64,000 bases of DNA from a virus (taxonomy: Duplodnaviria; Caudoviricetes). The number at the start of each line of letters is the position of its first letter. Within the stretch, counting starts at the first letter, position 1. Below are positions 15,261 through 62,381 of this stretch, piece by piece. The notes beneath the pieces were generated by a model. It was not told the origin of the DNA. It searched no databases and saw only the letters and a program-made list of their open reading frames with translations. Location: IMG/VR virus record IMGVR_UViG_3300037067_005096, positions 32,001 to 96,000 of that record; one strand, 5' to 3'. A program made the position numbers and the translations under genes.

Positions 15261-15330
15261 AATTAGTTGCTTATTCTATAGTGAGTATACCGCACAATCT
15301 GCCCGGTGTCAATAGAATAAGCAACTAATT
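15261..15330. repeat. perfect 19-bp inverted repeat enclosing a promoter
   Basis: aattagttgcttattctat (15261-15279) / atagaataagcaactaatt (15312-15330), 32-nt interior. Confidence 0.9.
15284..15312 (-). promoter_or_regulatory. consensus sigma70 promoter of the DUF932 gene
   Basis: TTGACA-N17-TATACT. Confidence 0.8.
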
Positions 15331-59725: not shown

Positions 59726-60443
59726 CAACGTATCTCCGTTTCGCTGTTTGATGGTGAGGTTTCTGCCGAATAGCATGCAGTAATTCATCTGCAAGCAGGT
59801 AATCCTCGTTCCCCACAGCTTCCACATACCGAATGGCATCCTCACAATCATCTGGATGCACTGGATGAGTCATAAGCAGACTTGCCCGTATTTGGTGGTC
59901 AAACACCCGGTCGTCTGCTTCTAGTAGTCGAAGGTCGCCCTGCGCAAGCACTGTCCACGCTGCCTCAAGCAAGTCATCTACTACATGGTCAGGTTCACAT
60001 TCACAACGTTTGCCTTCTATCAGCAGCGTCCGACATCCGGCTGCTTTACCAGCGAGAATATCTGTCTCACTGTCACCAATCATAAAGGACTCTGCTAGGT
60101 CTATGTCTAGGTCGATAGCTGCCTGCAGAAGCATACCTGGCTCCGGCTTTCGACACGAACACCCCTCCGAAGCCAGGTGCTTGCAGTAATAAAACGCCTC
60201 TATCTCCCCATTCACTGTTGCTGAAATGGCATCCTGCATTCGACACAAATCAGTTTCAGCAATGAGACCTTTCGCAATTCCTTGCTGGTTAGATACTACC
60301 ACAATGATAAAGCCTGCCGCTCTCAACCGATGAATGGCTTCTACCACACAAGGGTAGACCATCAACTCGTGTAAGTTCTTCACGTAGTCGGGCCGGTCGA
60401 TATTGATGACACCATCTCGGTCAAGGAAGACGGCTCTATTCAT
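59685..60443 (-). CDS. gmhB: heptose-1,7-bisphosphate phosphatase with C-terminal extension
   Basis: AVFLDRDGVIN, VSNQQG, CKH..CSCRKPEPGML, MIGDSETD. Confidence 0.88.
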   Translation of the reverse strand: MNRAVFLDRDGVINIDRPDYVKNLHELMVYPCVVEAIHRLRAAGFIIVVVSNQQGIAKGLIAETDLCRMQDAISATVNGEIEAFYYCKHLASEGCSCRKPEPGMLLQAAIDLDIDLAESFMIGDSETDILAGKAAGCRTLLIEGKRCECEPDHVVDDLLEAAWTVLAQGDLRLLEADDRVFDHQIRASLLMTHPVHPDDCEDAIRYVEAVGNEDYLLADELLHAIRQKPHHQTAKRRYVDVHKERRHSQRSR

Positions 60444-61341
60444 GGCCTAGTTGAGCCTCCACAAGCTGCTGCTTGTACCACTCCGGGAATCCAGCAATGA
60501 TGCCCCGCTGAATCTTCGGCCAGGCCCACTTGAAAAGCTGCTCCATTATCATGTCCTTCTCTTCCTTGAGAACATCCTGACCAACTTCTTTGAGCAACTT
60601 GCCGATGTCTCGCGGGTCGTGCTCCAGTTCCCCAGCTTCTTCAAGATGCTGTATAGCTTTCTGCCAACGAGCATCAGTCTTTAGTTGAGTAATCAAGTTC
60701 TGCACCACATCCGCAGAGCCAGGGTTGCCCATCTTCCACTCAGTCCGATGCTTCTCTTTGAACGCCTCAGACACGAACTTTGCCATCAGGCATTTCTTGT
60801 CTGGTGCGTAGACATCATAACCTATGGGCTTGATAACCACACCCTCAATCTTCACACCACCAAGCACTGAGTCTCGGTCGAGAAGTGAATTGAACAGGTC
60901 GATGTCGAGCTTGACAGCCGTTGCCAGAAGCGGAACGACTTCCAGTCCAAGCCTTGCCGCTTCAGCCGCTTTCTCCTCGTATGACAGGTAAGATTCCTCA
61001 CCAGTGTTGACATCGAAGAGAATGATATGGCTGGTCGGAATACGCTCATAGCAGAGAGCATTGTGTTTCGGCTTCGAGAGATATTCCCCACGATATGTCC
61101 AGCCATCATGCAAGTCAAGCTGCGCTACAGCTTCCACACCGGCAATGAACATCTTCTCTGGAGCATCCACTACCATCTCTTTGCCCTTTGAACGCACTCT
61201 CAACGTTCCATTGAATCTGCCAAAGCTAAACTGGCTGCCATCTACTTTCTCTTCGATATTGACAGCACACTGCAGTAGCGGTTCCAATGCTCTGTGACCC
61301 AGGTTGTACACCGAAGGATAACTATGCCAACTTGTTATCAT
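60436..61341 (-). CDS. RNA ligase (Rnl2-like nucleotidyltransferase)
   Basis: EEKVDGS, GEY, LFDV, VPLL, EGVVIK, AKFVS..FKE. Confidence 0.8.
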   Translation of the reverse strand: MITSWHSYPSVYNLGHRALEPLLQCAVNIEEKVDGSQFSFGRFNGTLRVRSKGKEMVVDAPEKMFIAGVEAVAQLDLHDGWTYRGEYLSKPKHNALCYERIPTSHIILFDVNTGEESYLSYEEKAAEAARLGLEVVPLLATAVKLDIDLFNSLLDRDSVLGGVKIEGVVIKPIGYDVYAPDKKCLMAKFVSEAFKEKHRTEWKMGNPGSADVVQNLITQLKTDARWQKAIQHLEEAGELEHDPRDIGKLLKEVGQDVLKEEKDMIMEQLFKWAWPKIQRGIIAGFPEWYKQQLVEAQLGHE

Positions 61342-61751
61342 TTCTTCAACTCCTTGAGTTTTTGTGCTATACTTACAGACTCTTCCCGTGGTGCTCCCCT
61401 ACACTCTTGTATCATCAAGTCGGCTTGTTCAGCTTTCTCAATAAGAAACGGCCTGATAAGCAAAAGAAAAGCCAAGATGTCTTGTTTAGCTCCAAAACCC
61501 CAATTCCATGTATCTTTATTCCCAGTTACTTTTGGCTCAGTTTGATGTTTTACTATATGCAAACTACCACCAAACTGTTGTTGTAATTGCTCTAAAACTG
61601 GTAGATACGAATTGGTGATATGAACTGAACGTATCCAACAAGGACTTTTATACCCACTCTTGTACCGTGAGCATTTACTACCCTTATTTCGGTACATCCC
61701 TATGCTTCCCTCACCATCAAAGAAACCTGCTACATATTCTAATGACAGCAT
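61338..61751 (-). CDS. single-motif LAGLIDADG homing endonuclease, free-standing
   Basis: EYVAGFFDGEGSI...FGG...IRPFLIEK; AT-richer than the flanks. Confidence 0.88.
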   Translation of the reverse strand: MLSLEYVAGFFDGEGSIGMYRNKGSKCSRYKSGYKSPCWIRSVHITNSYLPVLEQLQQQFGGSLHIVKHQTEPKVTGNKDTWNWGFGAKQDILAFLLLIRPFLIEKAEQADLMIQECRGAPREESVSIAQKLKELKK

Positions 61752-61805
61752 AATCCTTCACCTCTACCCCAGTATATCTCACTATGGGTATTTCATGCTG
61801 TCTTC

Positions 61806-62013
61806 AAAAAAAGCATATAGAAGTCCGGGTCAAGGCTTTCGTGAGAGTATAGGTTGCTTGACACGCTACTCTCCATCTACGGCAGCCGGACTTCTATATA
61901 CTGGGGTCTGGTCAACCACACGCTTCCCACCAGGTCAAGCCTGCCTAAGCCTTGTCCGTTGCGACCCCAAATAAGAACTCGACTATAGCCGGTAGCTGCA
62001 CTCGACTTCCCAC
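61806..62013 (-). ncRNA. unidentified structured RNA, about 210 nt
   Basis: Own promoter, no substantial ORF, several complementary segments, ends in a 14-bp stem plus U7. Confidence 0.55.
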
Positions 62014-62019
62014 CACATC

Positions 62020-62065
62020 AGTATACCGCACCTAGCAATCCAGGTCAACTGGTACTATTACTGGG
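62020..62065 (-). promoter_or_regulatory. palindrome plus promoter of the ncRNA
   Basis: CCCAGTA-ATAG-TACCAGT overlapping TTGACC-N17-TATACT. Confidence 0.75.
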
Positions 62066-62381
62066 TTTTCCGCATTTCAGCGAGCATATCTTCTTTCTCT
62101 TGCTCAAACTTCTTTCGGTCTATGCCGAAAAACTCATACAGCAACTCCAGCAGATTCGGATTGGTAGGATAAAGCACACCCTCACACATCCCACAGTGCC
62201 GCTTGTAGTCCTCGTGTTCTTCCAAGTCGATATAGCACTCATCAGTGTGTTCATGATACTTGGCAAGATGAATGTCCTTCTCTTGCTGCAGCCACTCGAA
62301 GAACTCACCACATGCTTGTGACTTCTCCTGGATTGCCACTACCTTGTCATGCTCCGGGTATTGACTGCTCTGCGATGGCAT
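62058..62381 (-). CDS. hypothetical protein
   Basis: GGAGG RBS. Confidence 0.6.
   Translation of the reverse strand: MPSQSSQYPEHDKVVAIQEKSQACGEFFEWLQQEKDIHLAKYHEHTDECYIDLEEHEDYKRHCGMCEGVLYPTNPNLLELLYEFFGIDRKKFEQEKEDMLAEMRKTQ

Follow-up and report, generated by a model that had tools for sequence, protein, structure and literature searches.

A predicted small RNA gene of a large phage with a core from a widespread, unnamed RNA family of phage tRNA arrays

A noncoding gap with a predicted promoter and terminator

We analyzed a 64-kb stretch of phage DNA (IMG/VR record IMGVR_UViG_3300037067_005096; hereafter, the window), corresponding to bases 32001–96000 of a complete, metagenome-derived 112,083-bp Caudoviricetes genome with direct terminal repeats. 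The feature of interest is a gap between two protein genes that carries a putative small RNA gene. On the minus strand, which is the coding strand for all flanking genes, this gap separates an open reading frame (ORF) from the gene for a free-standing LAGLIDADG homing endonuclease, whose stop codon overlaps the ATG of an RNA ligase gene (ATGA). The ligase gene is followed by a HAD/PNK-phosphatase-like gene, further genes and then a transfer RNA (tRNA) array (Table 1). A preliminary description, made from the sequence alone, had proposed that the gap encodes a new, multihelix noncoding RNA, possibly a riboswitch, attenuator or ribozyme that controls or partners the nuclease or ligase. In agreement with its statement that the gap lacks a substantial ORF, we found no minus-strand ORF longer than 28 amino acids.

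The suggested promoter, here termed promoter P1, was recovered by a consensus scan. It combines a palindromic upstream element (CCAGTA-N4-TACCAG), a −35 box (TTGACC, 62048–62043) and an extended −10 box (GTGCGGTATACT, 62031–62020). Nearly identical promoters occur at ten sites across the 112-kb genome, sharing a palindromic CYGGTA-N4-TACCAG that runs into the −35 box, a 19–20-nt spacer and an extended −10 box GGTATAMT. Five copies lie near the genome ends before small genes, in repeated units of about 650–790 bp; among the others, one precedes the operon ending at 62058 and one the gene for transfer-messenger RNA (tmRNA). This family is the phage’s own recurrent sigma-70-type promoter, of the same type as that used for tmRNA. 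A Shine–Dalgarno sequence and an ATG follow within about 35 nt in eight of the ten cases, the only exceptions being the tmRNA promoter and promoter P1. Because these two alone lack the downstream translation signals, we judge promoter P1 to be real and to drive an RNA product, for which the evidence is good although circumstantial. As separate observations, the palindrome resembles an operator for a dimeric regulator, and the last of three exact GTGCGGTATACT copies in the window, at 15295–15284, is located within a long perfect inverted repeat (AATTAGTTGCTTATTCTAT ... ATAGAATAAGCAACTAATT), forming a hairpin-embedded promoter.

The predicted transcript folds with a minimum free energy (MFE) of −80.7 kcal/mol (z = −3.6). 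This signal stems from the 5′-terminal hairpin D1 and the outer stem of the terminator domain D3; by energy, neither the middle domain D2 (z = −0.7) nor the inner portion of the terminator (z = −1.2) stands out. The 5′ strand of D1 repeats an element of the RNA family described below, GGUGGGAAG, which is thus present at the predicted 5′ end of the transcript and again in its core. Small ORFs after both GGUGGGAAG copies (18 and 14 codons, GTG starts) do not exceed chance expectation and were disregarded.

Domain D3 had previously been seen as a 14-bp hairpin ending in U7. Its arms, starting at 61899 and 61828, were confirmed and the stem proved longer: 15–17 bp (61902–61886 with 61828–61812) surround a 57-nt branched insert and are followed by U7 at 61812–61806. 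Across the whole genome, this is the lowest-energy combination of hairpin and U run and the sole hairpin-backed run of seven or more U residues. The stem ends at the first U of the tract, giving the stem with immediate U tract expected of an intrinsic terminator. Its 57-nt branched loop and AU-rich stem base are atypical of such terminators, and the consensus scan did not list it.

The remaining motifs of the preliminary description were all found where it had placed them, including the pairs GAGAGTA/TACTCTC (61873/61849) and GGGGTC/GACCCC (61968/61908) and the repeated TGGTGGGAAG (62015 and 61932). Its reading of a 21-nt strand starting at 61954, with complements at 61838, 61885 and 61862, as a sign of pseudoknots or a switch found no support, as 68 of 300 dinucleotide shuffles equal this complementarity. 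Moreover, the pairing would tie up nucleotides invariant in the RNA family with a 3′ domain that, among members, only this copy has. Of the proposed new RNA, a discrete noncoding gene with predicted promoter and terminator, therefore, remains and is very likely, while the pseudoknot switch is at chance level.

Table 1 Features of the locus and of the phage genome (window positions unless marked as genome positions)
Feature	Position	Strand	Details
Promoter P1	62020..62064	minus	Consensus scan, TTGACC-N17-TATACT at 62048–62020
Promoter family, members in window	63451–63417, 62064–62020, 44392–44354, 38521–38480	minus
Promoter family, members at genome positions	619, 1265, 1997, 110725, 111519	plus
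Promoter family, member at genome position	15459	minus
Upstream ORF, 107 amino acids	62381–62058	minus	Upstream of gap, has its own stop codon
Gap carrying the RNA			306 nt, between 107-amino acid ORF and LAGLIDADG gene
Predicted primary transcript	61806..62013	minus	About 208 nt; predicted start about 7 nt past −10 box, predicted end within U7
5′-terminal hairpin D1	61971..62013	minus	z = −3.8, helix probabilities 0.95–1.0; phage-specific
Conserved core D2	61900..61973	minus	Family member by covariance model R1
D2 stem P1	61968–61963 with 61908–61903; 61961–61958 with 61916–61913
D2 invariant 5′ strand	61957–61941
D2 stem P2	61943–61940 with 61934–61931
D2 invariant 3′ strand	61933–61917
D2 ACCA internal loop	61912–61909
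Terminator domain D3	61806..61902	minus	z = −6.1
Predicted read-through hairpin D4	61737..61809	minus	MFE −24.5 kcal/mol, z = −5.1, none of 300 shuffles equally stable
−10-like box GTGAGATATACT	61771..61782	minus	Inside D4
LAGLIDADG homing endonuclease gene	61338..61751	minus	Free-standing, single-domain, 137 amino acids; Pfam PF00961, phrog_5046
RNA ligase gene, Rnl2-like	60436..61341	minus	Pfam PF09414, phrog_548
15-tRNA array	57457–55805		4.3 kb from window RNA copy
tmRNA gene	44265–43920		17.6 kb from window RNA copy

An RNA family at home in phage tRNA arrays

Sequence comparison assigns the D2 core (66–74 nt) to a widespread family of structured RNAs, of which it is a divergent representative. 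The first lead was a 151-nt contig in one metagenome run that matched only 61908–61961, and an exact scan with the 20-mer of 61960–61941 located it in four other viral contigs. The conserved 3′ pattern occurred in 50 contigs, about 37 of which showed the full motif by regular expression or model, and the 5′ pattern in 75. Using covariance model R1, built from 25 sequences (hits at E ≤ 1e-3), we detected exactly one copy in each of 69 loci comprising uncultivated phage contigs and five cultured phages. In the phage studied here, R1 recognized D2 with 62 bits (E = 2.5e-13) as the sole copy in the 112-kb genome. A short BLAST query with the 62-nt core additionally matched about 90 cultured Streptomyces phages (Stanwilliamsviridae; for example, JimJam, NootNoot, Wakanda and Limpid), the Arthrobacter phages Racecar, Mimi and Talia1610 and two Microbacterium phages; no annotated feature lay under the match in any of the cultured-phage matches listed. 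Searching cultured phages with the whole region by blastn gave no match. Overall, the family ranges from phages of Actinomycetota to AT-rich and GC-rich uncultivated phages with unknown hosts. A match to a 22-mer in a Spartobacteria metagenome-assembled genome was GC-rich, appeared coding and lacked the 5′ motif, and was rejected. We also noted a partial relative in run X7 with a GUGGUGAGG-like copy just upstream of its core.

Two checks named in the preliminary description, an Rfam scan and covariation among homologs, both came out in favor of a new RNA. The window gave no match to Rfam 15 at the gathering threshold or at E ≤ 10, and the motif in nine other family members remained without a match even at E ≤ 10. 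A full-text literature search with short motif strings returned nothing relevant among the top-ranked matches. A computational csRNA catalog mined from IMG/VR was published in 2023 (PMC10690425) and may contain the family motif under a number. Covariation is clear for the central domain, as detailed below.

Architecturally, the family consists of two invariant purine-rich strands clamped between stems P1 and P2. The closing stem P1 abuts both invariant strands and varies in sequence and length; in seven lineages, including that of the window, it has a one-base bulge opposite the ACCA loop. The invariant 5′ strand starts with GGACAAGGCUU and the 3′ strand reads GGUGGG-NN-GCG-N-GUGG. Stem P2 comprises 3 bp (CAG/CUG or compensated variants) capped by a 9–10-nt loop of conserved sequence or extended by a loop-inserted arm of 20–190 nt. 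In one contig (L046, 2784–2976), a 143-nt AT-rich insert, the largest observed, replaces the usual arm.

Across 61 distinct sequences, aligned to the model in a manner that favors structure, the four inner P1 and three P2 pairs were 96.9% paired with 98 double-change cells. None of 500 shuffles reached the observed pairing, and sliding the partner by 1–3 columns reduced it to 12–63%. Stem P2 was paired in 100% of the family with 31 double changes. Individual helix pairs switched between AU (31), GC (19) and CG (10), as at the middle pair of P2, or between AU (41), GC (15) and UA (4), and were never unpaired. Plain MAFFT alignments had already shown the helix pairs clearly, and their columns abut invariant anchors. 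A mutual-information scan further revealed a purine–purine pair atop P2 that alternates between G·A (27) and A·G (22) and a long-range Watson–Crick pair from the strand entering P2 to the variable base of the 3′ strand (AU 37, GC 10, UA 4). Pairs of both kinds are commonly seen in RNAs that adopt a defined tertiary fold. The window copy carries the invariant 5′ strand GGACAAGGCUUNGGC at 61957–61943, which is invariant or nearly so in the 25-sequence and 61-sequence sets, and the 3′ strand GGUGGGNNGCGNGUGG at 61932–61917 with every invariant nucleotide present. Its stem P1 is formed by CAAC/GUUG and GGGGUC/GACCCC and its stem P2 by CAGG/CCUG.

In cultured and uncultivated phages, members reside inside tRNA arrays, on the tRNA strand, are tRNA-sized and are spaced 1–13 nt from neighboring tRNAs. 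The tmRNA gene immediately precedes the element in two contigs (L108 and L136); in Wakanda, Limpid and three further contigs (L060, L115 and L124), the two lie no more than about 500 nt apart. Although tmRNA is generally uncommon in phages, it was detected above the Rfam cutoff in 17 of 40 family-bearing records, including 9 of the 19 that are ≥90% complete. Compared with this general expectation, the co-occurrence in the 40 records looks like enrichment. We, therefore, describe a widespread RNA family without a name, with a covariation-supported fold and with the tRNA/tmRNA arrays of large phages as its usual home.

The window copy is located outside the tRNA/tmRNA array, as are stand-alone copies in L050, L055, L056 and Racecar. 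Stand-alone copies in L050, L055, L056 and L062 are preceded by a promoter-like box and end in a U tract right after stem P1. Downstream of such copies we found unrelated genes (DUF2786, lysin and staphylococcal-type nuclease), and this inconsistency disfavors a cis-regulator of one gene family. Among the neighboring tRNAs, tRNA-Pro(UGG) adjoins the element in five lineages, downstream of it in L040, L041, L044 and L075 and upstream in L043; in other lineages, the neighbor is a Gln, Met, Leu, Lys, Gly or Arg tRNA. Some arrays include suppressor-type tRNAs with CUA or UCA anticodons (L045 134–205, L089 8217–8291 and L083 2569–2640), and in L045 the CUA tRNA comes directly after the motif. Such phages may have recoded a stop codon.

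The neighboring nuclease and its start codon

The suggestion that the RNA controls or partners the nuclease or ligase was not borne out. The RNA was absent from all 30 loci with ligase relatives (3 viral and 27 metagenomic, 39–63% identity) and from all loci of six LAGLIDADG relatives, which are more distant than further homologs of 45–47% identity. The ligase relatives are not syntenic and have neither a nuclease nor a gap, and the LAGLIDADG relatives have short upstream spacers; an identical LAGLIDADG protein was present in five contigs. The nuclease gene, with a GC content of 39.6% compared to about 50% in its flanks, represents a low-GC insertion that is missing upstream of the ligase in all ligase relatives. 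As the ligase N terminus aligns from residue 1 or 2 in its relatives, no upstream ligase exon is missing. A group I or group II intron with a LAGLIDADG ORF was, likewise, rejected: no intron model matched, the host gene is unsplit and the upstream ORF has its own stop codon.

Complementarity to a site next to the LAGLIDADG ribosome-binding site, which the preliminary description had pointed out, does exist as a perfect 12-nt match between 61907–61896 and 61777–61766 (−18.2 kcal/mol). The region is better explained by a separate hairpin, D4, in which a 10-bp stem (61802–61793 with 61753–61744) holds the LAGLIDADG AUG at 61751–61749 and the Shine–Dalgarno sequence occupies an internal loop. As modeled, D4 can form on transcripts that pass the terminator and would then sequester the nuclease start codon. 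Box GTGAGATATACT inside D4 is identical to the extended −10 box of promoter P1 at 10 of 12 positions, within a wider 22-nt repeat of 73% identity, and has no −35 box. It may represent an internal promoter for transcripts without the inhibitory 5′ arm. A third copy of the 12-mer at 658–647 fits chance expectation.

This arrangement recalls the control of T4-type homing endonucleases. For I-TevI, segB and Aeh1 mobE, an inhibitory hairpin on long transcripts is combined with an internal late promoter (PMC2988022). D4 would similarly block the start on long transcripts and contains a −10-like box. It differs in belonging to an unrelated phage, in sequestering the AUG rather than the Shine–Dalgarno sequence, in controlling a LAGLIDADG rather than a GIY-YIG or HNH enzyme and in a candidate internal promoter that lacks a −35 box. 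The likeness concerns only 61809–61737, not the small RNA. A close parallel for the nuclease itself is T4 segB, which lies among stable RNA genes and promotes inheritance of the tRNA region. Three things that the preliminary description had merged are, therefore, separate: the small RNA gene, its terminator and a T4-like brake on the homing endonuclease.

The stretch was present in seven DNA metagenomes, mainly from landfill and also from groundwater samples. Two of the sequencing runs (X4 and X6) contained a variant strain with no differences across 61805–62072 (268 nt) and with flanks that differ by 1–8%. The nuclease gene diverged by about 1%, the ligase gene by about 2.7% and the upstream ORF, where 16 differences fall within about 160 nt, by about 8%.

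A proposed trans-acting RNA and its alternatives

We assign a probability of roughly 0.6 to the reading that the gap holds a small RNA gene with a transcription unit of its own of about 208 nt, that its core belongs to the unnamed family and that the RNA acts in trans within the tRNA/tmRNA–translation cycle. The RNA would work as a stably folded, nuclease-resistant molecule, and its invariant internal loop would be bound by a partner that very different bacterial hosts share. That this partner is universally conserved is suggested by the invariance of the element from host to host; most likely, it would be a component of the tRNA/tmRNA–translation cycle. Beside phage-encoded tRNAs and tmRNA, the RNA may tune or protect translation during infection. 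In the present phage, the gene would have left the tRNA array and gained its own promoter, 5′ hairpin and terminator; together with D4, the terminator would also stop early transcription from expressing the LAGLIDADG gene. More speculatively, and in our view rather less probable than not, the core may represent a new functional class, a compact, tertiary-locked purine-rich pocket for a universally conserved bacterial factor or small molecule of the tRNA/tmRNA–translation cycle. This pocket possibly contains a G-quartet, and large phages infecting unrelated hosts would deploy it alongside their tRNA and tmRNA genes so as to take over translation or protect it.

Several observations weigh against this interpretation. 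Context and conservation are the only grounds for the proposed function, and the transcript ends are predicted from the sequence. No RNA run was among the sequencing runs that contain the stretch. About half of the family-bearing phages lack tmRNA, which excludes a strict link to it. The window copy lacks the conserved RUGA...AACARR (UGA/AACA) loop elements, having CUUGA as its loop, and lacks the tertiary pair to the variable base of GGGANGCG, where the positions would be A/A; it scores below every other full-length member that has the standard short hairpin and could be decaying or repurposed. The loop consensus is also departed from in three other lineages (L041, L043 and L080). Finally, selection on the RNA is one explanation for the divergence gradient of the variant strain, but co-conversion around a homing site would also account for it.

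If correct, a trans-acting RNA of this kind would bear on a poorly charted subject, namely the contents of tRNA arrays of large lytic phages beyond tRNA and tmRNA. Sequence conservation of the element is comparable to that of a ribosomal motif, yet it carries no annotation in the cultured-phage matches listed and has no Rfam match. The identity of its partner could reveal a new phage route to manipulate translation or RNA processing. Model R1 could label the element in public phage genomes, and cultured, genetically tractable phage–host pairs carry it, making the question accessible to experiment.

Known RNAs offer partial parallels. T4 rnaC and rnaD (species 1 and 2 RNAs) resemble the family as tRNA-sized stable RNAs of unexplained function on the tRNA strand of a cluster, and the T4 cluster, like the window, has a free-standing homing endonuclease gene (segB) near stable RNAs. 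However, R1 gave only about 3 bits (E > 4) on T4 70.7–72.7 kb with filters off, the family occurs much more widely and its sequence is much better conserved, and the window gene, located away from the tRNA array, has a predicted promoter and terminator of its own. ROOL and GOLLD are also conserved, covarying phage RNAs of unexplained function, often near tRNAs, but they measure 500–800 nt, are in Rfam and do not match the family.

Other identities were rejected. The RNA is not a tmRNA: the motif has no match to the tmRNA clan, R1 misses the tmRNA genes of the window and of L060, and the association is positional only. We found no likeness to the tRNAs or tmRNA of the phage itself and no TROVE protein in the genome that would suggest a Ro/Y-RNA. 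Local alignment to Escherichia coli 16S and 23S rRNA performed no better than shuffled queries, which speaks against mimicry of the 16S 3′ domain, 16S 930–960 or the 23S GTPase center. The ACCA loop does not track CCA encoding in phage tRNA genes in the way that an encoded tRNA 3′ end would, and compensated P2 changes in JimJam and NootNoot are at odds with its pairing with the invariant UGGU. By inspection, K-turn, C/D-box and HDV-like (hepatitis delta virus-like) threading did not fit.

The strongest competitor, which we nevertheless consider unlikely, is a cis-acting leader similar to a riboswitch or attenuator, with the core as sensor and D3 and D4 as the expression platform; these would determine whether transcription from promoter P1 and from the upstream operon reaches the LAGLIDADG, ligase and phosphatase genes. 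The succession of promoter, aptamer-like core and terminator, with the 5′ arm of the terminator abutting the 3′ strand of stem P1, is the layout of such a leader, and the invariant internal loop with its tertiary pairs resembles a ligand pocket. Furthermore, the minus strand has no copy of the recurrent promoter between 61800 and 44392. In other members, however, tRNAs, a plain U tract or unrelated genes come after the core and no platform recurs, and we found no anti-terminator pairing upstream of the terminator. The 12-nt complement that joins the junction of stem P1 and terminator to the region beside the nuclease ribosome-binding site would suit a leader, but it lies downstream of the terminator and cannot affect termination; matches of the 12-mer in the genome occur at about the chance rate.

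Somewhat less probable still is a self-cleaving or processing RNA that cuts polycistronic tRNA-array transcripts. There is precedent in HDV-like theta ribozymes beside phage tRNAs, which are minimal HDV folds without P4 that place the cleavage site at the tRNA 3′ end (PMC10879173). Like these, the family consists of small structured RNAs packed against tRNA genes in Caudoviricetes, with spacers of 1–13 nt, and its size (45–190 nt), invariant loop between two helices, optional arm and tertiary pair are typical of small ribozymes. Its build of stem P1, large invariant internal loop, P2 and optional arm is a different one, though; by inspection, the core cannot adopt the nested double pseudoknot of HDV-like ribozymes, and no Rfam ribozyme family matched even at E ≤ 10. 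Stand-alone copies, including that of the window, have no tRNA to process, and in arrays RNase P and 3′ trimming would already free a unit closed by stem P1.

The least probable account takes the RNA fold in this phage to be incidental and the region to be mainly a DNA-level feature of the homing cassette, such as a site for targeting or immunity, scars of recombination or duplicated pieces of promoter. It could draw on the low-GC nuclease insertion absent from ligase relatives, on local repeats (three copies of TTGACCTGG, two of the −10 region and an inverted repeat of 12 bp), on strain divergence that is lowest beside the nuclease, as co-conversion predicts, and on T4 segB, which also lies among stable RNA genes and targets the tRNA region. 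We regard it as highly improbable given that dozens of phages without an adjacent LAGLIDADG gene preserve the core through compensatory changes, that the RNA region has a phage-like GC content of 51.9% versus 39.6% in the nuclease and that a DNA role of the flanks is compatible with an RNA gene.

Promoter motifs are dense at this locus: TTGACC occurs four times in 301 nt (0.16 expected) and TATACT three times (0.13 expected). Local duplications in 62048–61825 include three copies of TTGACCYGG at a spacing of 105–110 nt, and De Bruijn contigs of the region break exactly at 62043–62072.

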